Below are positions 3,221 through 29,186 of a stretch of DNA of 32,174 nucleotides, one piece after another. The notes beneath the pieces are model-generated. The model was not told where the DNA came from. It saw only the letters and a program-made list of their open reading frames with translations, and ran no database searches. The DNA lies in assembly GCA_035287145.1 (NCBI GenBank), contig DATEBX010000013.1, forward strand, positions 1 to 32,174, written 5' to 3'. Source of the stretch: Patescibacteria group bacterium (GTDB lineage: Bacteria > Patescibacteriota > UBA1384). The number at the start of each line of letters is the position of its first letter. The stretch's first letter is position 1. A program made the translations under genes and the position numbers.

Positions 3221-3285
3221 GGGAACCAGGGGACGGCAGGGAACCAGGGGACGGTTCTCTTTTACCCTGTACTTTCGGCTTTTTT
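3221..3285 (+). repeat. R-family repeat, copy R1 (tandem 18-nt units + 38-nt core)
   Basis: gggaaccaggggacggca (3221-3238), then gggaaccaggggacgg (3239-3254), running into the core ggggacggttctcttttaccctgtactttcggcttttt (3247-3284). The core is identical to 4299-4336 and contains the last codons and stop of the RAYT gene. Confidence 0.9.
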
Positions 3286-3915
3286 AAGTAAATTACGATT
3301 GATTTTTTGTTGCTCATTGTATCTTTGTCCCTTGCTACCCCAAGTATTCTTATGGAAAGTATCTTCTATCATCTGGCTCACTATCAGTTTTCGGTATTGC
3401 ACCTGGCGTTCTTTCGGAGTTTTGCCCAACGCATCGTATAAAAAATCCGGCGTAACTAATTTATTATCCTTACCTTTTGCATAAAAGCGATAGCTTGAAT
3501 ATTTATAATCTTCGGGTTTTTCAACTATACCGCGTCTTGTTGGATTGAGTTCAATATATTTACCGCATTGAGTGAAATAGGCATCTTTGCCGACCGGCTG
3601 GCTTTTGTACCGGTCTTGCCAGAAATGTCCCACCCAGTTATATAGCTGTCTATAATGATGGAAATACGCCAAATTAAGTCTTTTCATAAATAAAGAGAAA
3701 TCATTGGCTTTTCTGGTTTGAACCAGTAAATGAGTATGATTTGGCATTAAGCAGTAATGATAAAGGTCAAAGGGGTGCTCCTGCTTGTATTTTGTAACTA
3801 ATTCAAGAAAGTAATAATAGTCTTCGTTGGCTCTAAATACAACATTACGATTGTTACCCCTGGTCATGATGTGGTAAAAGCTGCGAGATAATAATAAGCG
3901 TGGGGGTCTTGGCAT
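3262..3915 (-). CDS. REP-associated tyrosine transposase (RAYT) / IS200-like Y1 HUH transposase
   Basis: N-terminus MPRPPR...SFYHIMTRGNNRNVVF, HUH motif LMPNHTHLLV, C-terminal Tyr region PEDYKYSSYRFY. 217 aa. Flanked by inverted R repeats. Confidence 0.85.
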   Translation of the reverse strand: MPRPPRLLLSRSFYHIMTRGNNRNVVFRANEDYYYFLELVTKYKQEHPFDLYHYCLMPNHTHLLVQTRKANDFSLFMKRLNLAYFHHYRQLYNWVGHFWQDRYKSQPVGKDAYFTQCGKYIELNPTRRGIVEKPEDYKYSSYRFYAKGKDNKLVTPDFLYDALGKTPKERQVQYRKLIVSQMIEDTFHKNTWGSKGQRYNEQQKINRNLLKKAESTG

Positions 3916-3921
3916 GATTTT

Positions 3922-3930
3922 ATATTATCA
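3922..3930 (-). promoter_or_regulatory. Extended -10 (TGATAATAT on the minus strand) for the RAYT gene
   Basis: The minus strand reads ...acgacgTGaTAATATaaaatcATG. Only 6 nt lie between the -10 and the ATG, and there is no Shine-Dalgarno sequence. This implies a near-leaderless mRNA. Confidence 0.35.
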
Positions 3931-3940
3931 CGTCGTAACG

Positions 3941-4004
3941 AAAAAGCCGAATTATCAGGTAAAAAGAGAACCGTCCCCTCTGCCGCTCCGTCCCCTCTGC
4001 CGCT
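3941..4004 (-). repeat. R-family repeat, copy R2 (inverted relative to R1)
   Basis: The reverse complement of 3941-3978 is ggggacggttctctttttacctgataattcggcttttt. It adjoins a perfect 17-nt x2 tandem, ccgtcccctctgccgct, at 3971-3987 and 3988-4004. Confidence 0.9.
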
Positions 4005-4266
4005 CTGCCGATGGCGGCTTCGTCGACGTGCCGTACTTCTATTTCGACGATGGCAAGGTCAAGTTCTGCACCGGCTGGGTCGCCGACCCGAGCGAGTGCT
4101 ATGGTGCCGCCTCCGGTTTCCTCCGCAGTAAACATCGACTCTTGCGGCATTGAGTTCTTGAATCTTTTGAAAAATCGATTCTCGAGTTCCCTACCGCGGA
4201 GCGGTCGCGACAAATTGGGCTACCCGCTTCCTTACGACGGATAGCCCTTTCTTTTAAACAGAAGGA

Positions 4267-4336
4267 GGGACCGGAAGGGGGACAGGAGGGACCGGAAGGG
4301 GGACGGTTCTCTTTTACCCTGTACTTTCGGCTTTTT
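4267..4336 (+). repeat. R-family repeat, copy R3 (tandem 21-nt units + 38-nt core)
   Basis: gggaccggaagggggacagga (4267-4287), then gggaccggaagggggacgg (4288-4306). The core at 4299-4336 is identical to 3247-3284. Confidence 0.9.
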
Positions 4337-4431
4337 GATGTTTATTTTTTGAGGACAATCAAACTTTCACTAAGATAAGAAACGTAGGCCACGACATATC
4401 GTGCGAATTTTGGCAGAGGCGTGTTAGCTGC

Positions 4432-4474
4432 GAGATTGCTTCCTCCACGATTTTATCGGGGCTCGCAATGACAC
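4432..4474 (-). repeat. C-family repeat, copy C3 (reverse orientation)
   Basis: The reverse complement reads gtgtcattgcgagccccgataaaatcgtggaggaagcaatctc, the same architecture as 13107-13160 and 24297-24337. Confidence 0.8.
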
Positions 4475-4496
4475 ATTTTAGCTATTAGCGCGTGAT

Positions 4497-4531
4497 ATTC
4501 GAGTGTCATCTGGGATTGTTTTATTCGAGTG
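4497..4531 (+). promoter_or_regulatory. Two ATTCGAGTG boxes upstream of secG (candidate operator)
   Basis: Exact 9-mers at 4497-4505 and 4523-4531. The same 9-mer recurs twice upstream of mreB. Confidence 0.3.
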
Positions 4532-9422: not shown

Positions 9423-9498
9423 GCACCCGTAGCTCAACGGTTAGAGCACTTGGTTTACATCCAAGGGGTTGTCTGTTCGAATCAGACCGGGTGCACCA
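9423..9498 (+). tRNA. tRNA-Val (anticodon TAC), CCA encoded
   Basis: Acceptor gcacccg/cgggtgc, D-arm gctc-aacggtta-gagc, anticodon stem cttgg/ccaag with loop ttTACat, T-arm gtctg-ttcgaat-cagac, then ACCA. Confidence 0.9.
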
Positions 9499-9592
9499 AG
9501 TAAAATTACTTCCTGCAAAACGAATTACATTCTGTTATTGCAGGAGCGTAACCACTTGGCGCAGCCATATAAGGAAGTAATTTTACGCAGTC
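9499..9592 (+). repeat. tRNA-3'-linked structured repeat T1 (candidate small RNA)
   Basis: Starts immediately after the CCA of tRNA-Val. Nested helices: gtaaaattacttcc (9500-9513) with ggaagtaattttac (9573-9586), cctgcaa with ttgcagg, and aacgaat-tac-attc(t)gtt. Direct repeat of 9863-9959. Confidence 0.75.
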
Positions 9593-9670
9593 GCGTGGCG
9601 AACGAAGTGAGTTTTACGCGACATTTCGTAACTTTGAGATTTGATTTTTGCATTTTGATTTATATGTATG

Positions 9671-9774
9671 TCTGAGTAGCTCAGTGGTATCCTCCTTCGT
9701 AAAATCTCTTGCAGTATTCAAATTATTGAAATCTGCAAATAGATTTTACTTCGGACGGACAGGGAGCAGAGGAC
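9671..9774 (+). pseudogene. tRNA-Phe 5'-half pseudo-copy interrupted by a 74-nt nested hairpin
   Basis: 9674-9689 (gagtagctcagtggta) and 9764-9774 (gagcagaggac) are identical to consecutive segments of tRNA-Phe (9792-9818). They are separated by a 74-nt insert (9690-9763). There is no anticodon loop, T-arm or 3' acceptor. Confidence 0.6.
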
Positions 9775-9787
9775 ACCAAAAGGATTT

Positions 9788-9862
9788 GCTGGAGTAGCTC
9801 AGTGGTAGAGCAGAGGACTGAAAATCCTCGTGTCGTGAGTTCGATTCTCACCTCCAGCACCA
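9788..9862 (+). tRNA. tRNA-Phe (anticodon GAA), CCA encoded
   Basis: Acceptor gctggag/ctccagc, D-arm gctc-agtggta-gagc, anticodon stem gagga/tcctc with loop ctGAAaa, T-arm gtgag-ttcgatt-ctcac, then ACCA. Confidence 0.9.
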
Positions 9863-9959
9863 AGTAAAATTACTTCCTGCAAAACGAACTACGTTCTGTT
9901 ATTGCAGGAGCGTAACCACTTGGCACAGCCACATAATAAGGAAGTAATTTTACGCAGTC
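9863..9959 (+). repeat. tRNA-3'-linked structured repeat T2 (candidate small RNA)
   Basis: Starts immediately after the CCA of tRNA-Phe. Same nested helices as T1. The innermost helix closes with C9889-G9893 where T1 has T9525-A9529. Confidence 0.75.
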
Positions 9960-10059
9960 CCGAGACGACGCTTCTTAAATAACAGGATGTAATCCGTTTT
10001 TAAGAAAGGAGTTTTTCGGGACAACACTTGAATCACACTCCCCATCCAACAATATCCCA

Positions 10060-12153: not shown

Positions 12154-13097
12154 CAGCTTGGCTCGGCCAAGCTTCTCGCGTCCTCATTATTTTTCACGAA
12201 TCGCCTGATGGCGACGGCATTGCCTCGTCTTTGGCGCTGGCCCACGTTCTTTGGGAGCGGGGCAAAAAAGTTAGTTTGGTCTGCCGCGATCCGGTGCCGC
12301 CGGTTTTTAATTTTCTGCCTAAGGTCGATACTATTGCCACTGATTTTATCGTGGCGGATTATGATGTCATTTGCACCGTTGATTGCGGTGATGCCAAGAG
12401 GACCGGTTTTCCCGACCGTATTAGAAAATTCGCGCGGACCAAAAAACGACTCATTAACATTGACCATCACCTTAAAAACGACCTCCATAAAATTGCCAAT
12501 ATCAACCTTGTCGACAGCCAGGCCGCCGCTTCGGCGGAACTGGTATATCAAATCATAAACGCGCTGGGCGCGCGCATTGACAAACATCTTGCCACCCTCC
12601 TTCTGACTGGTCTTTTTACCGACACCGGCGGCTTTCAGCACTCCAATACGACACCGCGTGTTTTTAAGCTGGCGGCAGAATTGCTGGCTAGGGGCGGGCA
12701 GTTGCGCAAGGTTTCAAAAAATGTCTCGTCAAGCAAGCCCCTAACCACTCTCCAGCTCTGGGGCATAGCCCTTGAGCGTCTGTGGCGTACCGAGTCGGGG
12801 ATTGTGGCGTCGCTTATAACACAAGAAGATTTGAGATGCGTCGGCGCGGTGGCGGACGACATTGCCGGCGCGGTCAATGTCTTAAATTCTATTCCCCAAA
12901 CCAAGCTCGCCATCTTGCTGCAGGAGGAGGCAAATGGTAAAATTAAAGCCAGTTTGCGGACCGAGGAGGAGGGGGTAAATGTGGCGGCGCTGGCGGCCTA
13001 CTTCGGCGGCGGTGGCCACCGCAAGGCCGCCGGTTTTACGGTTGACGGCAAACTGGCGCGTTCTTCCGGCGGCGTTTGGTGCATCGCCCTGTCATAA
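12138..13097 (+). CDS. nrnA: DHH/DHHA1 phosphoesterase, NrnA-type oligoribonuclease / pAp phosphatase
   Basis: Motifs FHESPDGDGIAS, TVDCGD, NIDHHLKN (DHH), GGGGHRKAAGF (DHHA1). Confidence 0.85.
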   Translation: MLKRVAAWLGQASRVLIIFHESPDGDGIASSLALAHVLWERGKKVSLVCRDPVPPVFNFLPKVDTIATDFIVADYDVICTVDCGDAKRTGFPDRIRKFARTKKRLINIDHHLKNDLHKIANINLVDSQAAASAELVYQIINALGARIDKHLATLLLTGLFTDTGGFQHSNTTPRVFKLAAELLARGGQLRKVSKNVSSSKPLTTLQLWGIALERLWRTESGIVASLITQEDLRCVGAVADDIAGAVNVLNSIPQTKLAILLQEEANGKIKASLRTEEEGVNVAALAAYFGGGGHRKAAGFTVDGKLARSSGGVWCIALS

Positions 13098-13106
13098 GAA
13101 AATCAG

Positions 13107-13160
13107 GTGTCATTGCGAGGAGCCCCGACCCACTGGGGCCGTGGGCGACGAAGCAATCTA
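13107..13160 (+). repeat. C-family repeat C1 (gtgtcattgcgagg...gacgaagcaatcta)
   Basis: GTCATTGC starts 11 nt after the nrnA stop codon. Terminal stem ATTGC/GCAAT and inner gcccc...ggggc hairpin. Related to copies at 24297, 4432 (-) and 25961 (-). Confidence 0.85.
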
Positions 13161-13172
13161 GTATTAGTTAGT

Positions 13173-13333: not shown

Positions 13334-13376
13334 CTTAACCTGTTAAAGTACACCTCGTAGGTGTCCTTTTTGGTTT
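13334..13376 (+). repeat. H-family repeat H1 (cttaacctgttaaagtacacctcgtaggtgtcctttttggtt)
   Basis: 13345-13375 is identical to 23002-23032, and 13334-13357 is identical to 14501-14524. Hairpin ACACCT-cgt-AGGTGT followed by CCTTTTT. Confidence 0.9.
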
Positions 13377-20716: not shown

Positions 20717-21656
20717 GAAGGTAATACTGGGCGCCGTATTGGTATTGCTCGCAATGCTAATGATTGGCGCGGGCTACGGCTGGTGGCGCTGGCAAGCGCG
20801 GCCGGCGGGCAAGAGCGGCACCATCGTGGAAATTACCGCCGATAATTTTTACGACCTCCGGCTCCAGCTTTCGAGCAAGAAACTTATTGGCTCCGGCCTC
20901 TACTTCGCGGCCATCTGGGGGGATAAAAAACAACTGCCGGAGAGGGGCTATTATTCTTTGGGCGGCACCGATGCTAAAGAGTTAAAAAAACTGTTAATGG
21001 CCGGTCCCAACATTGTCAAACTGACCATACCCGAAGGTTTTTCGGCGGGACAAATCGCCGCGCGCTTGGTCGGCGAGGGTTTGCCGGGTGAGGACTTTCT
21101 TGCACTCGCTTTGCCGCTTGAAGGCAAACTGTTTCCCGAAACGTATTTTTTGCGCAAAGCGTCAAACGCCCAGCAAATTATTGACAAACTGACGGCGACA
21201 TATGACGACAAAACCACTGAACTGACATTGTCGAATAATGATTTGATATTGGCATCCATCATCGAACGCGAAGCTAAAAAGGACGAAGAACGCCCGAAAA
21301 TTGCCGCCCTTTACCTTAATCGACTAGCACAAGGCATGAAGCTCGAAGCCGACCCGACGGTGCAGTACGGCCGTGATTTAACTTCGCTTAAAGCCGACGA
21401 CTTAGTAAATGTAAAATTGTGGCAGCCGCTCGCCTCGGGCGACACCCACGCCATTGTGTCAAAGTATAATACTTATGCCTCGGCCGGCCTGCCGCCCGGT
21501 CCCATTTGTAATCCCGGAATCAAGAGCTTGAAAGCGGCAAAAAATCCCGAAGCGGGTATTACCGCCCTCTATTTCTTTCACGACGCTGGCGGTGTTGTCC
21601 ATTTTACGAACTCTTTCACGGAGCACCAAGCCGCTATCCAAGAATTCGGCCTATAA
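20700..21656 (+). CDS. mltG: Endolytic murein transglycosylase MltG (YceG-like)
   Basis: TTG start with GGAGGA 5 nt upstream. N-terminal TM. YceG motifs LEGKLFPETYF, ASIIEREA, LEADPTVQYG, YNTYASAGLPPGPICNPG. Confidence 0.85.
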   Translation: MPKIGKKVILGAVLVLLAMLMIGAGYGWWRWQARPAGKSGTIVEITADNFYDLRLQLSSKKLIGSGLYFAAIWGDKKQLPERGYYSLGGTDAKELKKLLMAGPNIVKLTIPEGFSAGQIAARLVGEGLPGEDFLALALPLEGKLFPETYFLRKASNAQQIIDKLTATYDDKTTELTLSNNDLILASIIEREAKKDEERPKIAALYLNRLAQGMKLEADPTVQYGRDLTSLKADDLVNVKLWQPLASGDTHAIVSKYNTYASAGLPPGPICNPGIKSLKAAKNPEAGITALYFFHDAGGVVHFTNSFTEHQAAIQEFGL

Positions 21657-21661
21657 ATTTA

Positions 21662-21690
21662 TTGACACCAATGCACTTCCCTGTTATTAT
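21662..21690 (+). promoter_or_regulatory. Near-consensus sigma70 promoter (TTGACA-17-TATTAT)
   Basis: TTGACA at 21662-21667, 17-nt spacer, TATTAT at 21685-21690. Begins 6 nt after the mltG stop codon. Confidence 0.6.
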
Positions 21691-21860
21691 TAACCTTCCC
21701 TCTGCGTGCTACTACGCAGGAGGTGCTACTTAACAAACAATTCATTTTTGGCTTTTGGGAGCAAGCCAGAAACAGAAAGGGAGCGAAGAACACAGAGCAC
21801 AGAGCACCAATTACTACCCCGGCTTCCGCCGGAAAACCCGCCGTACAAGGAGTGAGTGTA

Positions 21861-22895
21861 GTGGAACGTCTACGTCTAGAAGGGCGACCGGTAACACTCT
21901 TCACCGGCCAATGGGCCGATCTCCCTCTCGACCAGTTGGCCGCAAAGGCCGCAAACTGGGGGTATTGTGGCCTTGAGCTGGCCTGCTGGGGCGATCACTT
22001 TGACGTTGTCAAGGCTCTTGCGGAGCCCGGCTATGTCAAAGCTCACCGCAGGTTGCTCGATAGTCACGGCCTTAGGTGCTGGGCGATCGGGGCGCATCTT
22101 GTCGGCCAGGCAGTTTGTGACCCCATCGACGCGCGTCACCGGGGGATCCTGCCACCCGAGGTGTGGTATAATGGCGATCCTGAAGGTGTTCGGGAGCGGG
22201 CAGCCAAGCGCATGAAGGACACGGCTCGCGCCGCCGCGGCCCTCGGTGTTACCCAGGTGAACGGCTTCACCGGCTCGAGCATCTGGCACATGCTCTACTC
22301 GTTCCCTCCGAACGACCCGGAAGAGATCGAGCGCGGCTACCAGGACTTTGCCGAGCGCTGGGGGCCGATCATTGACGTCTTCGATGCGGAGGGTGTCCGC
22401 TTCGGGCTCGAAGTGCACCCGACGGAGATCGCCTATGACTTCGTCACGACCTGCAAGACGCTCGTTGCCATCGACAACCGTGCGGGCTTCGGAATCAACC
22501 TCGACCCGAGCCACTTCGCTCACCAGTCCCTGGACCCTGCGCTGTTCGCACTCGAGTTCGCTGACCGCATCTACCACGTACACGTCAAGGACTCGTGCAA
22601 GGACCTCGATGGGCGCAAGTCGATTCTAGGTGGTCATCTCAATTTCGGCCACCTGCAGCGTGGCTGGGACTTTGTCTCACCAGGCCACGGCGACGTGGAC
22701 TTCGAGGGGCTCTTCCGCGCACTCAACCGGATTGGCTACGCGGGTCCGCTCTCGGTCGAGTGGGAGGACTCTGGCATGGACCGTGAGTGGGGGGCACAAG
22801 ATGCACTTGCGTTCGTGGGCCGAACGGACTTCGCGCCGTCCAGCGTCGCCTTCGACGCGGCTTTCGACCAGAAAGAACAGCCGACCGACCAGTAG
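21861..22895 (+). CDS. Sugar phosphate isomerase/epimerase, xylose-isomerase-like TIM barrel (AP endonuclease 2 superfamily)
   Basis: [70 protein letters not shown] are typical of this family. The ORF is open from 21723, but GTG 21861 follows AAGGAG (21847-21852), and the GC3-rich part begins there. Strongly GC3-rich. Confidence 0.8.
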
Positions 22896-22950
22896 CGCCC
22901 TATCGCTGGTCAAGACCCACAGTTTCTGGCGGATAAAACCGCTGGCGCAT

Positions 22951-22984
22951 ACGACCTCTGCCATCTTGGCGGGGGTCGTTTTTT
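22951..22984 (+). terminator. Intrinsic terminator of the TIM-barrel gene
   Basis: 12-bp stem (22951-22962 with 22968-22979, two G-U pairs), 5-nt loop, TTTTT at 22980-22984. Confidence 0.75.
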
Positions 22985-23001
22985 AGTAGAATGAACCCGC
23001 A

Positions 23002-23032
23002 AAAGTACACCTCGTAGGTGTCCTTTTTGGTT
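23002..23032 (+). repeat. H-family repeat H4
   Basis: aaagtacacctcgtaggtgtcctttttggtt is identical to 13345-13375. Confidence 0.9.
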
Positions 23033-23058
23033 AAAAACGCCCCTATCTGGAGTGCTGG

Positions 23059-23138
23059 ATTCGAGTGTTGATTCGCCCGCCTAGACTCGGCGAGGCTGGT
23101 TAGGCGAGGCTGGCGACTAATTCGCGCGAATTCGAGTG
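23059..23138 (+). promoter_or_regulatory. Two ATTCGAGTG boxes plus a 14-bp tandem (ggcgaggctgg-tta-ggcgaggctgg) upstream of mreB
   Basis: Exact 9-mers at 23059-23067 and 23130-23138. The tandem lies at 23089-23113. Confidence 0.3.
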
Positions 23139-23154
23139 ATGGTGTGCTCTTGTC

Positions 23155-23184
23155 TTGTCGCCACGCCTGCGCTACGGTTATAAT
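23155..23184 (+). promoter_or_regulatory. Candidate mreB promoter (TTGTCG-18-TATAAT)
   Basis: TATAAT at 23179-23184 and TTGTCG at 23155-23160. The ATG at 23240 is about 50 nt downstream. Confidence 0.45.
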
Positions 23185-23239
23185 AGGGTTTCGGGGGAGG
23201 GCTTTTCTTTGTGGCATAAGCATACAAGGGCACTAAATT

Positions 23240-24289
23240 ATGGTATTTAACAGATTTTTTCGCACATTTAGCCACGATATCGGCATTGACTTGGGTACGG
23301 CCAATACTCTTGTGTACGTTCGTGGCCGCGGCGTGGTCATCAACGAACCCTCCGTAGTTGCTATTAATAAGAATACTAAACAAATTCTTGCCATCGGCGA
23401 GGAAGCCAAGGAAATGGTCGGACGGACGCCGGCGCACATTGTCGCTGTTCGCCCGCTGGTCGACGGCGTGGTGAGCGATTTTGAAGTTACCGAACAGCTT
23501 CTCAAATATTTTATCAGCCGTGTCCACCACGAACGTTTTGTTTTTTTCCCGCGCCCGAGAGTTGTCATCGGCATCCCCTACGGCGTAACTGAAGTTGAAC
23601 GGCGGGCAGTCGAGGAAGCCACCACCAACGCCGGCGCGCGCGAAGTTTATTTAATAGAAGAGCCGATGGCGGCGGCAATTGGCGCTAGATTGGCGGTGCA
23701 GGACGCGAGAGGAACGATGATTGTTGATATCGGCGGCGGCACCACCGAAGTGGCGGTCATATCGCTCGGCGGCATTGTTTCCAGCCGCTCCCTGCGCATA
23801 GCCGGCGATGAGCTGAACCAGGACATCATTAACTTTGCCCGCGACCAATACAACCTGCTTTTAGGAGAGCGCACGGCGGAGGAAATCAAGATTGCTGTCG
23901 GTTCGGCATTACCGCTCGGCAAACCGCTAACTACCCCCATGCGCGGCCGCGACCTCATCACCGGTTTGCCTAAAGAAATTATTATTGACGACGAGCAAAT
24001 CCGCCGCGCTATGGGCAAATCGGTACATTCTTTAGTGGATGCCATGCGCGTGACCATCGAAGAATCGCCGCCGGAGCTGGTGGCGGATATTCTAACGCAG
24101 GGGATTATGTTGGCCGGCGGCGGCGCGCTCCTGCGCGGCTTCGACCGTTTGGTGGCGGATGCGACCGGTATGAAAGTTCACATTGCCGACGATCCCCTGA
24201 CTTGCGTCGTCCGCGGCACCGGCGTGGTCCTGGAGGATTTGGACGACCTGCGCGGCGTCCTCCTCCCCACCGAATATGTCCGCCCCTAG
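23240..24289 (+). CDS. mreB: Rod shape-determining protein MreB
   Basis: DIGIDLGTANTLVYV, VIGIPYGVTEVERRA, IVDIGGGTTEVAVISLGG, MLAGGGALLRGFD. Confidence 0.95.
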   Translation: MVFNRFFRTFSHDIGIDLGTANTLVYVRGRGVVINEPSVVAINKNTKQILAIGEEAKEMVGRTPAHIVAVRPLVDGVVSDFEVTEQLLKYFISRVHHERFVFFPRPRVVIGIPYGVTEVERRAVEEATTNAGAREVYLIEEPMAAAIGARLAVQDARGTMIVDIGGGTTEVAVISLGGIVSSRSLRIAGDELNQDIINFARDQYNLLLGERTAEEIKIAVGSALPLGKPLTTPMRGRDLITGLPKEIIIDDEQIRRAMGKSVHSLVDAMRVTIEESPPELVADILTQGIMLAGGGALLRGFDRLVADATGMKVHIADDPLTCVVRGTGVVLEDLDDLRGVLLPTEYVRP

Positions 24290-24296
24290 GTATCCA

Positions 24297-24337
24297 GCGT
24301 CATTGCGAGGGGCCCCATTGGGGCCCGAAGCAATCTC
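24297..24337 (+). repeat. C-family repeat C2 (gcgtcattgcgaggggccccattggggcccgaagcaatctc)
   Basis: GTCATTGC starts 9 nt after the mreB stop codon. Stem ATTGC/GCAAT and inner ggcccc-att-ggggcc. Confidence 0.85.
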
Positions 24338-24444
24338 TTAACGTTCACGCTAAAGCGTGGCCTACGGGAATCGTAGAACAAGCTTCCCTGTCCAGCGAAG
24401 CTCGAAGAGCGAAGTTGGAAACTTGTCGGAATATGCCATCCAGG

Positions 24445-24473
24445 TTGACAAACCTGTTGCAATCTGCTATCAT
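24445..24473 (+). promoter_or_regulatory. Near-consensus sigma70 promoter (TTGACA-17-TATCAT) of the orphan gene
   Basis: TTGACA at 24445-24450, 17-nt spacer, TATCAT at 24468-24473. Confidence 0.6.
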
Positions 24474-24560
24474 CTGGTTGTTCAGATGTCCCTTGATAAC
24501 CAGGTCCCGCTTGGCGGGACATAGATGCTGGCGAGCATATACGCAAGGAGGCGACAGCTG

Positions 24561-25481
24561 ATGACCAGTCAGACTGCGTCAAAGGTAACAGATAGACAGA
24601 TACTGGAAATGAAGAGGCAGTTGGAGGTTGTGGCCTACCGCTACCTCTCCCTCGAGAGTGCACAGATGATCATCGAGCGGGGCGACGTATTCCAGTCCCG
24701 GCTTGGCGATCTCTTACGCGAACTCGGTGGCATGTTCCCGAATCAGTACGAGAGTGAGCGCGTTGACCGGACCCTCGACAACCCCGCGGGCTGGTCAGTT
24801 CCGTCCTTCGACGAACAGCGTGCGCGCACCGCCAAACTGTTCCCCGATCTGGTTTTGCCCGAGACCCCCACACGGGACATTGTTGTCCCCAACGGTTGGG
24901 ACGGCGTCTGGTGGTTCCCGCCTAAGATTGCGGCCATCGGCCGCATCTGCGGAGTAGCCGACTGCTACATCGCGGACTATGGCACAGTCGTGAAGCACCT
25001 GCTCACCCTCATCAAGAAGCAGCGTGCCTTCATCAACTACCGCACCCTAAACGGCGACCAACTGACGGCGGAGTACGTCCGCATCAATGAGAACGTGCGC
25101 GGCCGCATCCAGATGCTGGAGGCCGCCACCGGCGGCGACTTCCTGCCGCCAATGCCGATAACATTCGGCCAATTCTACGGGGGCTTCTCGCCCCGCAATG
25201 CCCGCGAAACGGCCATCCGTCGGCAGGAGCTACCGTTCTGCACTGCCCAGGTCGGCTCGCTGCTGGCCGTCATGCCTGAACGCCTCGCCGCTCACGACCT
25301 CTGGATTGATATCCCCGCCGATGAGTACCACTGGGGCGGTGACAACCTCTGGGCGCACTCGCTGTATTTCTACTTCGGTGACGGCGGGTTGATGATGTTC
25401 GATTCCGGTGGTGCTGCCGATGCCGCTGGCCGCTGTGGCTCGGCTGTCGGTCTCCCGGGAGTGTCGGAGTTCGCCTCCTAG
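24561..25481 (+). CDS. Hypothetical protein, 306 aa, no recognisable family; GC3-rich foreign-looking gene between mreB and mreC
   Basis: AAGGAGG at 24545-24551, then ATG at 24561 (the ORF is open from 24525). Coherent GC3 codon bias (TTC, AAG, GAC, TAC). Own promoter and terminator. Confidence 0.7.
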   Translation: MTSQTASKVTDRQILEMKRQLEVVAYRYLSLESAQMIIERGDVFQSRLGDLLRELGGMFPNQYESERVDRTLDNPAGWSVPSFDEQRARTAKLFPDLVLPETPTRDIVVPNGWDGVWWFPPKIAAIGRICGVADCYIADYGTVVKHLLTLIKKQRAFINYRTLNGDQLTAEYVRINENVRGRIQMLEAATGGDFLPPMPITFGQFYGGFSPRNARETAIRRQELPFCTAQVGSLLAVMPERLAAHDLWIDIPADEYHWGGDNLWAHSLYFYFGDGGLMMFDSGGAADAAGRCGSAVGLPGVSEFAS

Positions 25482-25518
25482 GCGACTCGGTACTTTCGGT
25501 CTTTCGACCTCTCGACAT

Positions 25519-25552
25519 GGGGGCGAGCTTTGCTCGCCCCCGAAACTTTTTT
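25519..25552 (+). terminator. Intrinsic terminator of the orphan gene
   Basis: 10-bp stem gggggcgagc/gctcgccccc with loop ttt, then gaaacTTTTTT. Confidence 0.7.
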
Positions 25553-25620
25553 ACAAAATATCAAAATTGTCTTTATAAAAAATACTCGCCAGAACCTTTA
25601 TAAAAAGGGCTCATGACAAA

Positions 25621-25658
25621 GGGGACGGTTCTCTTTTACCCTTAACATTCGGCTTTTT
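25621..25658 (+). repeat. R-family repeat, solo copy R4
   Basis: ggggacggttctcttttacccttaacattcggcttttt. The first 22 nt are identical to R1 and R3. No tandem units. Confidence 0.85.
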
Positions 25659-25686
25659 GAATTAAACTCCACACAGCTTACATATT

Positions 25687-25786
25687 CACCCCACCAACCC
25701 CGCCTCGACCGACTTCGAGTCGGGCGGGCTCCCCCTCTTAGTAAGCCTGTCCCGAGTCACACCGAGGGAGGGGAGCTGGTGGGGTG
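25687..25786 (+). other. About 100-nt three-helix structured element (candidate ncRNA or structured repeat)
   Basis: Closing helix caccccacca (25687-25696) with tggtggggtg (25777-25786), 10 bp perfect. Internal helices cccgcc(tcga)/(tcga..)ggcggg and gctccccctc/gagggaggggagc. Confidence 0.4.
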
Positions 25787-25960
25787 GTATTCGCCTGCAG
25801 GATACTTTGTATGCCCAAACTCTAAAATCTGAACCTGCAAATTGCACACTTCGGAAGTGTGCAGAGCGGTTTACCTATTCTCGTGTTCTATTCGAGCGTA
25901 ATAAGCCCGACAGAACACGGCTCTTTATCGAGGCGGGCCGCGCCCACGATCGTAACCGCT

Positions 25961-25978
25961 CGGGGCTCGCAATGACAC
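25961..25978 (-). repeat. C-family repeat, partial copy C4 (reverse orientation)
   Basis: cggggctcgcaatgacac matches the same segment of C3 (4457-4474). Confidence 0.7.
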
Positions 25979-26047
25979 AAGGGGTATTTTAGTTCACGCA
26001 ATTAAGGTCTCTTGCAAGTTGCGGCACGCGACTTTAAACTAATACCT

Positions 26048-26821
26048 ATGTGGCGACGGCTTATTAACCCATTTATCTGGATTGCCTTAACGGCTCTGCT
26101 CGGTCTCTGGCCATTGAGCCGGTCTTGGTGGCAAAGGTCGGTTGGCCAGTCGGCTTACATTGTTGGCGCCGCCGGCCAGCTTGGGAGCGACAAGGTATCC
26201 GCCCTTGCCCGTTTGACCTCGCTTGATACGGAAAACAAACAACTGCGCGAGGAGAACCAGCGGCTGCAATCGGAGCTGGCGCATCTCAAGGAAGTCGAAA
26301 AGGAAAACACCGCACTTAAAAAGGAAGCCGGCGCCGAGCCGTCGGTGCGCGGATACCGTCCCATAACAGCTCGGGTAATAGGACATACGCCCGTGAACTA
26401 TCTTCAAACGATGATTATCGACCGAGGCGAGCGTGATGGCTTACAAAAAGGACAAACCGTCGTCGCGCAGGGTTATTTGGTGGGACAAATTGTATCAACA
26501 ACGCAGACCACGAGCCAAGTTAGCGTAGTAATCAACGGCCAGCTGACACTGCCGGTCATATTGCAAGATTCGCGCGGCACCGGCGTCGTCAGGGGCGGTT
26601 TGGACGGTTTGCTCGTGAGCGATATTCCTCTGGACGCCGCTATCAAAGAAAGCGAAATGGTCATCACGCAAGATGTCGGTAATTTCATTATCCCCGATAT
26701 CGCAGTGGGTACCGTGCGGCGAGTGATTCGCCATCAGGGCGACATCTTCCAGCAGGTACTTGCCGACTCCCCCCTCAATTTTTCCCGCCTCGAAGTCGTT
26801 ATTGTGTTAATAAAAGAATAA
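26048..26821 (+). CDS. mreC: Rod shape-determining protein MreC
   Basis: N-terminal TM, coiled coil (ENKQLREENQRLQSELAHLKEVEKEN), MreC beta domains (GQTVVAQGYLVGQIVS). The ORF is open from TTG 26012. ATG 26048 was chosen as the start. Confidence 0.85.
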   Translation: MWRRLINPFIWIALTALLGLWPLSRSWWQRSVGQSAYIVGAAGQLGSDKVSALARLTSLDTENKQLREENQRLQSELAHLKEVEKENTALKKEAGAEPSVRGYRPITARVIGHTPVNYLQTMIIDRGERDGLQKGQTVVAQGYLVGQIVSTTQTTSQVSVVINGQLTLPVILQDSRGTGVVRGGLDGLLVSDIPLDAAIKESEMVITQDVGNFIIPDIAVGTVRRVIRHQGDIFQQVLADSPLNFSRLEVVIVLIKE

Positions 26822-27289
26822 ATGCACCGTTCAATATATCTTTTGGGGCTTGTGGCAATATGGCTCGATATGGTCGCGGCGGCCTGGTGGCCACTATGGC
26901 TTATTCCTATTTGGCTGTGGGTCGGCATAGTAATTGCCGTCTATCATAAAAACACGAGCGCGCGTTGGCTCTGGCTACTTTCTTTTTCCGCATGGAGCTT
27001 ATTTGTCGCCTCGCCGTTAACAGTCCTGGCGCAACTTGTAATCTTTTTTCTTGGCGGCGAGGCGATGAACTTTATTTACAACCGTTATCTTCCCGTGAGC
27101 CATATTATCCTGTCAGCGGTTGTCAGCTTAGTCGCACTAAGCATAAACCAGCTACTATTTATGGCGGTGACGGGACAGGCCATCAGTTGGCCGCTGGTAG
27201 GTAGAGTTATTGTTACAACCATCATCTTAATTGTATACGGAATATTTTATGTGGCCCGTCAAAAAGTTTCGAAAAAACAATATCTTTGA
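26822..27289 (+). CDS. mreD: Rod shape-determining protein MreD
   Basis: 155-aa polytopic membrane protein starting 1 nt after the mreC stop codon, in the canonical mreC-mreD-mrdA position. Confidence 0.7.
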   Translation: MHRSIYLLGLVAIWLDMVAAAWWPLWLIPIWLWVGIVIAVYHKNTSARWLWLLSFSAWSLFVASPLTVLAQLVIFFLGGEAMNFIYNRYLPVSHIILSAVVSLVALSINQLLFMAVTGQAISWPLVGRVIVTTIILIVYGIFYVARQKVSKKQYL

Positions 27290-29186
27290 CCCCCAAAACC
27301 GCGCCGTTCACCGTCTAGCGACGACCGACCGGAGTAGTTTGGAGTGGCGCTACACTGACTATAGCTGGAACGAATACGGTCCCGGCCGCGACCATAAACT
27401 CAAAACAAGAGTCGGCATCTATTACGGGCTCATACTGGTCTTGGTCGGCATTTTTTTCTTACGGCTCGCCAATCTGCAAATAGCGCGCGGTTACGGCTAT
27501 CGCCTGCAAGCGGAGGGCAACCACATCAGAAGCCGCTTAGTGGAAGCCCCGCGCGGCAACATTATGGACCGCCATGGCAGCATATTGGCCAGCAACACTG
27601 CCGATTACTCATTGTTTATTTATCCTTACAATATGCCGCGCTCGGTCAGCGAACAACAGGAAACTGTGGCGCGCATTGTCAGTGTCACCGGCTACCAAGG
27701 CGATTTGGCCGCGGAAATAAAGCAGGCGCGCGCGCGCGGTTTTGAGCCGTTGGAGCTTTTTATCAATCTTGACCGCGACCGCGCCATAACTTGGAAAATT
27801 CAACTCCCGGATGTTCCCGCCGTCAACGTCAGCGCCCAGCCGAAGAGGTATTATCAAACCGGCTTGCCCGTCGCGCATATTATCGGCTATACGGGCAAGA
27901 TGAACGACGATGAGATATCACGCTACCCGGACTACCCGAGCGGCAGCGAAATCGGCAAAACCGGCATCGAATATTCTTACGACATTGAGTTGAGAGGGCG
28001 GGCGGGTGAAGAACGGGTGGAGATTGACAGCGCCGGCTTGATTCGGCGGTTTATTGATACTTTGACGCCGGTAACCGGCAATACCTTACAATTGGCGCTC
28101 GACAATGGACTGCAGCAAGTATTGGCTGATAATTTGCGTCTTGCTATGGAGAAAACTCAAAGCAAGTCGGCGGTCGCCATCGCTATGGACCCGAGAAACG
28201 GCGGCATAATCAGCTTGGTAAGCTTGCCCGATTACGACCCCAATATTTTTGCCGGTTCGGTGAATCCCGAACAGTATCAGGCGCTCCTGGACAATCCCGA
28301 CAAGTCCCTGCTTAACCGCGCTATCGCCGGCGTTTATCCGCCCGGTTCAACCATCAAGCCCTTTGTTGCTACGGGGGCGCTGGAGGCAGGCGTAATCGGC
28401 GAGCAAACCACGCTCATCACCCCGCCGGAAATAAAAATCGGCGAATGGGTTTTTCCCGACTGGAAAGCTCATGGTTCCGCCAATGTCAAAAAAGCCATCG
28501 CCGAAAGTAACAATGTTTTTTTCTATACCATTGGTGGCGGCTACGGCAATATCGGTGGGCTGGGTTCTAGTCGCTTAGGCCGTTATTTGGAGCAGTACGG
28601 TTTTGCCGCGCCGACCGGCATTGACCTGCCGGGCGAAAAAAAAGGTTTAGTGCCAAGCCCCGAATGGAAAGAGAAATATAAAAAAGAAAAATGGTACATA
28701 GGTGATACTTATCATATGGCCATCGGGCAGGGCGATATATTGGTTACCCCCATGGAAATTGCCGCGGCGACTGCTGCGGTAGCGAACGGCGGCACATTTT
28801 ATGAACCGAAAGTCGGTCGAGCGGTTATTGCGCCCGATGGGCAAAAGGTGCGGGATATTGCCCCGACGACGCGGGGGGCGGCGGTGGCCAGCGCCGATAA
28901 TTTGCGCATAGTGCGAGAGGGTATGAGGCAAACCATAACTGCCGGCAGCGGCCGGTCAACTTTCGGTGACGGTTTTCCGGTGGCGGTCGCTGGCAAAACC
29001 GGCACGGCCCAATTCGGCAACGAGGGCAAATTGCATGCCTGGTTTACATCCTTTGCCCCCGTCAATGACCCGAAAATCGTCATCACGGTATTTGTCGAAG
29101 GTGGCGGCGAAGGATATATGACGGCGGCACCCGTTGCCAAAGTGGCCTATGAGTGGTATGCTGCGCATATTGAAGCCCTAAATTAA
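27249..29186 (+). CDS. mrdA: Penicillin-binding protein 2 (elongasome transpeptidase)
   Basis: TM anchor. SxxK (GSTIKPF), SxN (ESNNVFF), KTG (GKTGTAQ). Start uncertain: TTG 27231, ATG 27249, or TTG 27339 after GGAG. Confidence 0.9.
   Translation: MWPVKKFRKNNIFDPQNRAVHRLATTDRSSLEWRYTDYSWNEYGPGRDHKLKTRVGIYYGLILVLVGIFFLRLANLQIARGYGYRLQAEGNHIRSRLVEAPRGNIMDRHGSILASNTADYSLFIYPYNMPRSVSEQQETVARIVSVTGYQGDLAAEIKQARARGFEPLELFINLDRDRAITWKIQLPDVPAVNVSAQPKRYYQTGLPVAHIIGYTGKMNDDEISRYPDYPSGSEIGKTGIEYSYDIELRGRAGEERVEIDSAGLIRRFIDTLTPVTGNTLQLALDNGLQQVLADNLRLAMEKTQSKSAVAIAMDPRNGGIISLVSLPDYDPNIFAGSVNPEQYQALLDNPDKSLLNRAIAGVYPPGSTIKPFVATGALEAGVIGEQTTLITPPEIKIGEWVFPDWKAHGSANVKKAIAESNNVFFYTIGGGYGNIGGLGSSRLGRYLEQYGFAAPTGIDLPGEKKGLVPSPEWKEKYKKEKWYIGDTYHMAIGQGDILVTPMEIAAATAAVANGGTFYEPKVGRAVIAPDGQKVRDIAPTTRGAAVASADNLRIVREGMRQTITAGSGRSTFGDGFPVAVAGKTGTAQFGNEGKLHAWFTSFAPVNDPKIVITVFVEGGGEGYMTAAPVAKVAYEWYAAHIEALN

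Follow-up and report, generated by a model that had tools for sequence, protein, structure and literature searches.

A probably orphaned and frozen DGR variable-protein gene in the mreB-mreC interval of a Patescibacteria group bacterium

Introduction

Why should a gene of 306 codons, with expression signals of its own, stand between mreB and mreC in a core cell-shape operon? The stretch of DNA analysed here (the window; 32,174 nt of contig DATEBX010000013.1 from a Patescibacteria group bacterium) raises this question. An earlier note, made from the sequence alone, described the gene as independently expressed foreign cargo of unknown function and without a recognizable family.

Diversity-generating retroelements (DGRs) offer a possible answer. 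In a complete element, an error-prone reverse transcriptase (RT) copies the transcript of a template repeat (TR); adenines are randomized in the process, and the resulting cDNA overwrites the variable region (VR), rewriting about 45 C-terminal residues of the binding surface of the target protein. The DGRs of the 'CPR set' have the B3 architecture and carry unclassified 'UVR' variable regions, UVR1-6 (Wu et al., 2018; PMC5758913), and a later survey describes DGR clade 2 and 24 target protein clusters (Roux et al., 2021; PMC8144416). Here, we report that the apparent orphan can be interpreted as half of such an element. Most likely, it is the stranded target half of a Patescibacteria-type DGR, lodged between mreB and mreC with the diversifying half gone, and it is probably an orphaned variable-protein gene that is now frozen.

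Results and discussion

Layout of the mreB-mreC interval

The features of the interval are collected in Table 1. The 306-codon ORF is real, and the promoter, RBS, hairpin, repeat and structured DNA that had been described around it are all present. Its high GC3 is likewise borne out (0.77 against 0.50-0.64 for the mre genes). An alternative in-frame ATG at 24525 would extend the product to 318 aa; we place the start at 24561 because all homologues begin with MT(S/N)Q and the stretch from RBS to ATG is kept at other loci. The start of mreC is placed at 26048 owing to homology with the 257-aa MreC of the syntenic loci L033 and L034. The mreB gene gives a Pfam MreB_Mbl match in contigs identical to the window.

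Table 1. Features of the mreB-mreC interval and its flanks (window positions)
Feature	Position	Strand	Remarks
mreB	23240-24289	+	349-aa ORF; left flank of the insertion
Palindromic REP-like repeat GTCATTGCGAG...GAAGCAATC ('repeat C2')	24299-24338	+	Copies aligned
Cassette promoter TTGACA-17-TATCAT with TG extension (predicted)	24445-24473	+	Consensus scan, 11/12
RBS AAGGAGG	24545-24551	+	Read from the sequence
306-aa gene, member of the DGR variable-protein family	24561-25481	+	Scaffold, residues 1-256; variable region, residues ~257-301
Fossil VR	25330-25462	+	Aligns with VRs and TRs of L001, L003 and L019
GC-rich 3' end of VR, IMH-like	25437-25462	+	Last 26 nt; TR and VR are the same here in sister elements
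Conserved post-stop segment of DGR target cassette	25482-25615	+	Homology to complete DGRs stops at 25615
GC hairpin and T-run	25518-25552	+	Intrinsic terminator, possibly DGR target-recognition hairpin/cruciform
Solo RAYT-associated repeat GGGGACGGTTCTCTTTTACCC...CGGCTTTTT	25617-25668	+	At the breakpoint; the TR-Avd-RT half would come next in a complete element
Structured non-coding DNA	25669-26011	.	100-nt palindrome, smaller hairpins, partial inverted repeat
Promoter-like TTGCAA-17-TAAACT	26012-26040	+	7 nt upstream of the mreC ATG; putative function
mreC	26048-26821	+	Right flank; candidate starts 26012 (TTG) or 26048 (ATG)
mreD	26822-27289		After mreC
mrdA	27231-29186		After mreD

The gene is foreign to the mre cluster

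In the closest syntenic relatives, which were found by protein search and contig look-up, mreB directly precedes mreC and the gene is absent. The gaps measure 262 nt in L033, 23 nt in L034 and 196 nt in L036, and the corresponding MreC proteins are 75, 44 and 48% identical to that of the window; with L033, the similarity of the mreB DNA (81% identity) extends to window position 24309. A scan of GTDB genomes with MreC yielded only distant relatives (29% identity or less) that are useless for synteny. Since mreB adjoins mreC in the syntenic relatives, the gene is foreign cargo, as had been proposed, and its homologues elsewhere have unrelated neighbourhoods: beside serine recombinases, between uvrA and uvrC, and near rpsI or prfA.

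The gene does lie inside the mreB-mreCD-mrdA cluster in every contig of its population, and one might therefore take it for a native, lineage-specific accessory protein of the elongasome that is co-regulated from its position between mreB and mreC. This is extremely improbable: it is contradicted by the absence of the gene from the three relatives and by the unrelated contexts of the homologues, as well as by a promoter and terminator of its own and a GC3 far above that of its neighbours. Most likely, the 306-aa gene has no functional link to the elongasome, and in this lineage the spacer between mreB and mreC simply serves as an insertion site for repeats and cargo.

The homologues are targets of classical DGRs

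Searches of Pfam, NCBIfam, PHROGs, PADLOC and PDB sequences with the 306-aa protein returned nothing usable; the same was true of a Pfam search of 114 family members, and a family profile had no hits among PDB sequences. To this extent, the statement in the earlier note that the protein shows no family signature stands. However, the protein does belong to a family, which is large, uncurated and without a Pfam entry: 17 homologues were recovered by word index, and a profile search gave 1802 clusters (~1800 at 50% identity).

The neighbourhoods of the closest homologues identify this family as one of DGR variable proteins, and the verdict of a gene of unknown function without a family has to be given up. 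Full-length alignments of the window protein with P0002-P0011 give 56-79% identity, and three of these homologues (P0002, P0005 and P0006) belong to loci that contain both a VR/TR pair and an RT. Where the identity is 62-79%, RVT_1 and bAvd genes are found downstream of the homologue. The layout of the sister loci comprises a promoter, the variable-protein gene with its C-terminal VR, a GC hairpin/terminator, a spacer of ~300 nt, TR, bAvd on the opposite strand and RT. The VR, which is the last ~130 nt of the gene, recurs as TR ~300 nt downstream in the complete sister loci, and every TR/VR mismatch falls at a TR adenine in L001 (20/20) and L003 (18/18). The pattern extends to L044, the target of which is only 29% identical to the window protein (E = 1.5e-23); 21 of the 22 mismatches in its 137-nt VR/TR pair are at TR adenines. 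A DGR-type RT is found 0.7 kb downstream in L001, L003, L019 and L044, and bAvd (Pfam PF22296) is present in L001, L003, L019 and L041. The window gene aligns with the sister proteins from end to end; its C-terminus matches their VRs down to the GC-rich 3' end, which is invariant. The Trp/Gly/aromatic-rich C-terminal part, which the earlier note had pointed out, is the variable region itself.

The conservation is not limited to the coding region. The site at 24445-24473, a strong sigma-70-like promoter and the only promoter-like site in a consensus scan of 24200-26100, is also kept before the homologues in L001, L003 and L019, and the RBS stretch CGCAAGGAGGCGA.A.CTGATGAC is common to L001, L003, L006 and L019. 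Downstream, the post-stop segment is 72-80% identical to the post-stop DNA of the same four loci, and the homology to DGR loci extends 134 nt beyond the stop codon and ends where the RAYT repeat is reached. Within this segment, the hairpin (25518-25542) has 11 pairs, nine of them G-C, and is followed by the T-run (folding z-score -4.8); it is kept in six loci, with compensatory changes in the stem. The GC-stem terminator of the earlier note is thus confirmed as a hairpin with a T-run, and it forms part of a conserved DGR target cassette. Promoter, RBS, gene and terminator move as a single cassette across unrelated genomic contexts.

In Bordetella phage BPP-1, retrohoming requires a GC hairpin after VR, and no sequence beyond +24 of the VR end is needed (PMC3240598). 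The GC-rich VR 3' end and the downstream GC hairpin of the window, both conserved in sequence, are putative cis elements of this kind; the hairpin begins ~55 nt after the end of the TR/VR homology, which is farther than the region mapped in BPP-1, and it resembles an ordinary terminator.

The diversifying half is absent from the window and the variable region does not vary among contigs

No RT was found in the window, either by tblastn with three sister RTs or with an RT HMM on all six-frame ORF segments. The window likewise contains no Avd, the accessory variability determinant (tblastn with the bAvd of L019; HMM on six-frame ORFs), and blastn revealed no second copy of 25300-25481, that is, no TR, within the 32 kb. 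This absence of the TR-Avd-RT half is the defining feature of the locus and was missed in the earlier note.

The VR itself seems to retain a record of its past. Counted indirectly, against the conserved TRs of the sister loci in place of a cognate TR, mismatches occur at 22 of 32 adenine sites and at 10 of 88 other sites (Fisher p = 2e-9), and the window VR has an extra in-frame insertion of 3 nt, one codon. Its adenine content is 0.10 compared with 0.25-0.26 for the sister TRs. Non-adenine differences number 0/88 in VRs that adjoin a TR, and 3/88 and 5/88 in other orphan copies. The window VR thus appears to carry an old signature of adenine mutagenesis overlaid by ordinary drift and a codon insertion, although the ten non-adenine differences and the extra codon could instead stem from a divergent cognate TR and not from drift after orphaning.

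Ten other contigs, from several sample accessions, match the gene and both spacers at 100% identity wherever they cover the locus (some end before mreC). As the look-up of identical copies was by exact protein identity, the argument for invariance rests on the 90% cluster, which holds no VR variant; its sole other member is the 318-aa version that begins at the upstream ATG. Across the ten further contigs and the 90% cluster, the VR therefore showed no ongoing diversification. A metagenome scan for the VR/TR 3' end, in a collection without the organism of the window, recovered sister elements only.

Might the window copy nevertheless be a live remote target, served by a complete DGR elsewhere in the genome that supplies TR RNA, Avd and RT in trans? 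The DGR of Treponema has seven non-adjacent targets. Remote targets of this kind resemble the window copy in being target-type genes with a VR, a GC-rich end and a hairpin but no adjacent RT; they are documented for some DGRs (PMC5758913), and the window represents only 32 kb of the genome. The elements of BPP-1 retrohoming (PMC3240598), namely the GC-rich end of the VR and the hairpin downstream of it, are intact and conserved, so that a DGR acting in trans could still rewrite the VR. We nevertheless regard a live target as unlikely. The first objection is the invariance of protein and DNA described above. The second is the VR itself: remote targets are recognized by differences from TR at adenines only (PMC5758913), whereas the window VR shows 11% non-adenine divergence and a codon insertion relative to the sister TRs, in contrast to the 0/88 of TR-linked VRs. 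In addition, CPR DGRs tended towards one target each in a survey of GenBank (PMC5758913), which found remote targets, at a distance of >100 kb, only in another lineage. A weak further point is that the locus-tag prefix of the MAG is absent among the minority of the best 120 RT homologues that are named by source.

An intact scaffold under purifying selection

Selection on the window gene differs between its two parts. Relative to L019, dN/dS is 0.19 outside the VR and 1.66 within it. The divergence from L019 amounts to ~0.57 synonymous substitutions per site, and part of that branch belongs to an active copy. Purifying selection is thus seen on the scaffold.

The loss of the diversifying half, and a location within a nest of mobile repeats, could also suggest a functionless relic that was stranded so recently that its degradation is still to come; the population shows no SNPs from which selection on the window copy could be measured. 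The state of the copy makes this quite improbable. The frame is full length and retains every residue that is invariant in the family, its expression signals (promoter, RBS and terminator) are likewise intact and conserved, and the low scaffold dN/dS points the same way, subject to the mixed branch just mentioned. Moreover, at least three other genomes contain orphan copies that are intact as well. Their breakpoints lie +78, +80 and +299 nt after the stop codon, so that the sub-family alone contains four independent stranded copies with differing breakpoints. DGR target cassettes can evidently part from their RT and persist. Such stranded targets fall outside the existing catalogues (PMC5758913; PMC8144416), since these required an RT next to VR, and because RT-anchored catalogues cannot see them, the 'hypothetical proteins' of CPR genomes may commonly include relics of hypervariable proteins.

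We therefore prefer the reading of a stranded but maintained target half. The window preserves the element as far as 134 nt beyond the stop codon, namely the promoter, RBS, scaffold, VR, GC-rich VR 3' end and hairpin, with the scaffold intact and under purifying selection; the place of TR, Avd and RT is taken by the RAYT-associated repeat and other palindromic DNA. The VR tip would once have been written by adenine mutagenesis, a rewriting that has presumably ceased, perhaps permanently. Because the cassette is retained while TR, Avd and RT are replaced, the gene is most likely driven by its own promoter, judging from the sequence, and its product would be a ligand-binding protein of fixed sequence.

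Predicted structure and comparison with known systems

A first AlphaFold2 model, built from 17 sequences, reached a mediocre pLDDT of 67.6 and gave no interpretable match in Foldseek. With 114 sequences, the model reached a pLDDT of 93.6 and a pTM of 0.88. Foldseek of this second model, a check that had been proposed before, revealed no solved structural neighbour in PDB or BFVD: no match had an E value below 0.9, and the best towards the C-type-lectin fold were two chains of formylglycine-generating enzyme (FGE), 2q17_D and 6muj_A, with E = 8.6 over 48 columns only. The model thus matches no solved variable protein with the C-type-lectin fold, by which DGR targets are usually recognized; divergent C-type-lectin variants are known to escape sequence and structure searches of this kind. 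As regards other features of the chain, no signal peptide or membrane segment had been noted, and no domain match was found to the contrary.

Among known systems, the gene comes closest to the DGR variable proteins, as represented by Mtd of BPP-1, TvpA of Treponema denticola, TaqVP of Thermus aquaticus and archaeal AvpA. With these it shares a C-terminal VR of ~45 residues, for which a TR with many AAY codons serves as the template in the sister loci, the two differing strictly at adenines. Further shared features are a GC-rich VR 3' end at which TR and VR agree, a GC hairpin downstream, purifying selection on the scaffold and a dN/dS above 1 in the VR. There are distinguishable differences. 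The window copy has no TR, Avd or RT, it shows no sequence similarity to any solved variable protein, and its confident model has no Foldseek match to a C-type-lectin-fold structure beyond the marginal FGE alignment. There are likenesses to the CPR/Patescibacteria DGRs as well. The host group is the same, since 'Patescibacteria group bacterium' is the name attached to an identical protein and, among named RTs, the nearest are those of Berkelbacteria; these elements are compact, with a single, uncharacterized target protein, and the VR can be assigned to neither the C-type-lectin nor the Ig class.

A tentative extension, which we consider possible but doubtful, is that the VR scaffold of the family is neither a recognizable C-type lectin nor an Ig fold, and that the stranded copies are 'locked-in' DGR winners: variants selected during diversification would have become fixed upon loss of the TR-RT half and would serve as cytoplasmic binders of fixed specificity, under purifying selection in several Patescibacteria genomes. 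Being large, uncurated and structurally unmatched, the family is a candidate for testing whether DGR diversification needs a C-type-lectin scaffold.

Repeats at the breakpoint and the region upstream of mreC

The repeat at the breakpoint had been labelled RAYT-associated, and this label holds because copies of it (at 3247, 3941 on the minus strand, and 4299) flank the ORF 3262-3915(-), which encodes a Y1_Tnp/IS200-like transposase (E = 5e-18). The breakpoint repeat thus belongs to the family that flanks the Y1_Tnp gene of the window, and the mreB-mreC spacer of L033 carries an inverted pair of it. The 306-aa protein has no HUH/Y1 features. The REP/RAYT system is only a neighbour here and possibly an agent of rearrangement.

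'Repeat C2', on the other side of the gene, is a member of the CATTGCGAG...GAAGCAATC palindromic family. The CATTGCGAG core nonamer occurs five times in the window against 0.35 expected; four of the five are repeat copies (4462-, 13111+, 24301+ and 25966-), and that at 20748- looks coincidental. As L033 has the same core behind its mreB stop codon, the repeat at 24299-24338 is probably native to the intergenic region. A composite transposon bounded by inverted CATTGCGAG repeats was considered and rejected, as the left copy is also found after mreB in L033, which has no insert.

The stretch of ~350 nt of hairpin-dense non-coding DNA reported before mreC is also real. The segment 25669-26011 folds better than its shuffles on both strands (z = -4.3 and -4.9) and includes a palindrome of 100 nt (25687-25786) and an inverted, partial CATTGCGAG repeat at ~25935-25978(-). 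It has no similarity to DGR loci, and an Rfam search of the spacers gave no match, only one sub-threshold chance hit.

For the mre cluster, the consequences of the insertion are modest: mreB is parted from mreCD-mrdA by a gene that is predicted to be independently transcribed and terminated. The earlier note expected mreCD-mrdA to use either a promoter of its own or read-through, and the motif immediately upstream of mreC would fit a separate promoter for mreC. L033 has an equivalent in the same place (TTGTAA-17-TAAACT-7-ATG), and this conservation suggests that mreC is transcribed on its own in the lineage.

Identification of the gene as a DGR variable-protein gene

The 306-aa gene between mreB and mreC is an orphaned, probably frozen variable-protein gene of a diversity-generating retroelement (DGR). 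A word-index search returned the identical protein, annotated as no more than a 'hypothetical protein, Patescibacteria group bacterium', together with 12 homologues sharing 56-79% identity and four sharing about 30%; the genomic contexts of these homologues settled the identity of the gene. In two loci (L001 and L003) an RVT_1 reverse transcriptase (RT) lies ~0.7 kb beyond the gene, and in the locus of the closest homologue (L019, 79%) the gene is followed by a bAvd accessory gene and an RT. In all three, the final 130 nt of the gene are repeated ~300 nt beyond the stop codon. All 20 mismatches between the two copies in L001, and all 18 in L003, fall at adenines of the downstream repeat. A variable region (VR) paired with a template repeat (TR) and altered specifically at adenines is what defines a DGR. 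Our translation of the TR gives an AAY-rich codon string, W-D-A-D-G-N-W-T-N-S-L-Y-F-N-F-N-D-D... The window gene aligns end to end with the DGR variable proteins, and the Trp/Gly/aromatic-rich C-terminus flagged in the earlier note is the VR. A distant member (L044, 29% identical) likewise lies next to an RT and has a VR/TR pair of 137 nt in which 21 of 22 mismatches are at adenines; thus, DGR targeting is a property of the family, beyond the closest clade. The earlier note had recognized no family. This stands for Pfam, NCBIfam, PHROGs, PADLOC and PDB sequences, none of which gave a match, but not for the gene itself, whose homologues neighbour RT, bAvd and TR and which belongs to a family of DGR variable proteins.

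In the complete sister DGRs, bAvd lies on the opposite strand between the TR and RT, 1-4 nt from each (L001:5824-7337, L003:7217-8733, L019:1585-3089). This arrangement may be 'B3', the architecture that 90% of CPR DGRs were reported to have (PMC5758913). In three of the homologous loci, the variable-protein gene has a gene for a large serine recombinase (Resolvase, Recombinase, Zn_ribbon_recom) within 2-4 kb (L001:1058-2431, L003:1674-3065, L006:383-1936), with Ltp-like lipoprotein genes in L001 and L003 and a ParB-methyltransferase gene in L003; the sister DGRs are therefore probably carried on integrative elements or prophages. In another Patescibacteria-like genome, a complete DGR with the same target family (L044:3338-6110) separates uvrA from uvrC, a further case of an element within a conserved housekeeping gene cluster.

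Organization of the locus

Features of the mreB-mreC interval in the window
Feature	Position	Remarks
mreB	23240-24289	left flank of the gene under study
Promoter TTGACA-17-TATCAT	24445-24473	11/12, with TG extension
AAGGAGG (RBS)	24545-24551	
306-codon ORF	24561-25481	
GC hairpin with T-run	25518-25552	11 pairs
Solo repeat copy	25617-25668	same repeat flanks the Y1_Tnp/IS200-like transposase gene 3262-3915(-)
mreC	start 26048 by homology	longest ORF from TTG 26012; followed by mreD, mrdA

Both the gene order and the independent signals of the ORF described in the earlier note were confirmed at their positions. Its promoter is the sole sigma-70-like site in 24200-26100, and both strands of 25669-26011 fold significantly better than shuffles. 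A TTGCAA-17-TAAACT element is located 7 nt before the mreC ATG and recurs in the syntenic relative L033, which suggests that mreC has its own promoter whether or not the insert is present.

The window shares with the DGR loci the promoter, the RBS, the GC-rich VR 3' end (25437-25462, where TR and VR are the same in the sister elements) and 134 nt past the stop codon. This last stretch contains the GC hairpin, whose stem shows compensatory changes among six loci. Homology to the DGR loci stops at 25615, two bases ahead of the RAYT-associated repeat. No TR was found in the 32-kb window, and neither tblastn nor an RT HMM run on six-frame ORF segments revealed an RT or Avd. Thus, the target half of a DGR is present in the window and the diversifying half is missing from it.

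Loci L006/L007, L040 and L047 of the same sub-family are also without TR, Avd and RT. The point past the stop codon at which homology with the complete elements ends is +299, +80 and +78 nt, respectively, as against +135 in the window, and these strandings are independent events. The +299 breakpoint (L006:5761-6060) is one or two bases short of the TR start (+301 in L001), i.e. at the TR boundary. The distant solo members L043 and L045/L046 adjoin housekeeping genes. Catalogues anchored on the RT miss such stranded relics of DGR targets.

History of the variable region and function of the gene

Because the three sister TRs hardly differ from one another, they were used as a stand-in for the lost TR. 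Compared with them, the window VR differs at 22/32 invariant adenine columns and only 10/88 other columns (Fisher p 2e-9), a clear trace of earlier adenine mutagenesis. The non-adenine differences, accompanied in the window VR by an in-frame 3-nt insertion, number 0/88 in TR-adjacent VRs and 3/88 and 5/88 in two other RT-less copies. This pattern is as expected of ordinary drift after disconnection; a divergent cognate TR would look alike. A DGR acting in trans from elsewhere in the genome, of which 32 kb were examined, could still be rewriting the VR, but we regard this as improbable: ten other contigs, from several sample accessions, match the gene and both spacers at 100% identity wherever they cover them, and the 90% protein cluster holds an alternative-start form as its only other content. 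The window VR is probably frozen.

The reading frame is intact, every family-invariant residue is kept, and dN/dS relative to L019 is 0.19 outside and 1.66 inside the VR. The promoter and terminator are also intact. On these sequence grounds, we infer that the gene is expressed and functional.

Protein family and predicted fold

Searching 1.84 billion representatives with a profile yielded 1802 clusters at E<=1e-3, of which 682 reached E<=1e-30; most are of ~300 aa, and 0/114 family members matched Pfam. A confident AlphaFold2 model from the 114-member alignment (pLDDT 93.6, pTM 0.88) predicts a three-helix segment at the N-terminus followed by an alpha/beta core, with the VR on a C-terminal beta-meander (strands 248-256, 266-272, 278-284 and 292-297). 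Foldseek found no neighbour below E 0.9 in the PDB, solved C-type-lectin variable proteins included, or in BFVD; a hit to formylglycine-generating enzyme (48 columns, E 8.6) is too weak to count as evidence. Novel, hard-to-recognize C-type-lectin variants were anticipated among CPR targets by Roux et al. (PMC8144416), and most CPR VRs were left unclassified by Wu et al. (PMC5758913). The large family described here fits this gap, either as a divergent C-type lectin or as a different scaffold; its scaffold is uncurated and structurally unmatched.

Origin of the insert

MreC-based look-ups gave three syntenic relatives, in which mreB and mreC are 262 nt (L033, MreC 75% identical), 23 nt (L034, 44%) and 196 nt (L036, 48%) apart, and the 306-aa gene is absent from this interval in all three. 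In the L033 spacer, a CATTGCGAG repeat closely follows mreB, and the RAYT-associated repeat is present as an inverted pair; the mreB-mreC spacer is a repeat nest in this lineage. The GC3 of the cassette is 0.77 versus 0.50-0.64 for the mre genes. The absence from relatives, the repeat-nest spacer and the GC3 contrast together support the earlier proposal of foreign cargo.

Variable-protein genes elsewhere have GC 0.62-0.65 and GC3 0.81-0.86 (L001:4606-5523, L003:6001-6918, L006:4843-5760, L019:367-1287) in contigs of 42-48% GC. In every host examined, this foreign composition extends over the entire gene, not merely the adenine-depleted VR.

Other features of the window

A GC-rich xylose-isomerase-like TIM barrel gene (AP_endonuc_2; 21723-22895(+), GC 0.61, GC3 0.71) lies between yceG and mreB, and is a second lineage-specific insertion beside the mre cluster; it is absent in L033, L034 and L036, where mreB follows yceG. 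A 39-nt hairpin repeat lies 3' of it (22994-23032), with a second copy at 13337-13375. L013, a contig with an identical 306-aa gene, is without AP_endonuc_2, and the end of yceG (82% identical) is directly upstream of mreB. All of its SNPs (24/24) fall in the first 285 nt of mreB (L013:1-900 versus window 21360-23530); this contig either represents a recombinant strain or was assembled chimerically.

The Y1_Tnp/IS200-like (RAYT-type) gene, in 3247-4346, is bracketed by three GGGGACGGTTCTCTTTTACCC...CGGCTTTTT repeats at 3247, 3941(-) and 4299; this is the repeat forming the inverted pair in the L033 spacer. Copies of a second palindromic family, GTCATTGCGAG - GC hairpin - GAAGCAATC, are found at 4425-4500(-), 13090-13165(+), 24292-24338(+) and 25935-25978(-). 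Two inverted copies bracket the entire mreB-mreC spacer, and the core nonamer is 14-fold over-represented within the window. A ~365-nt tandem duplication (9423-9968) spans two tRNA genes (9423-9495, 9788-9859), with downstream segments (9468-9601 versus 9832-9968) that are 87-91% identical.
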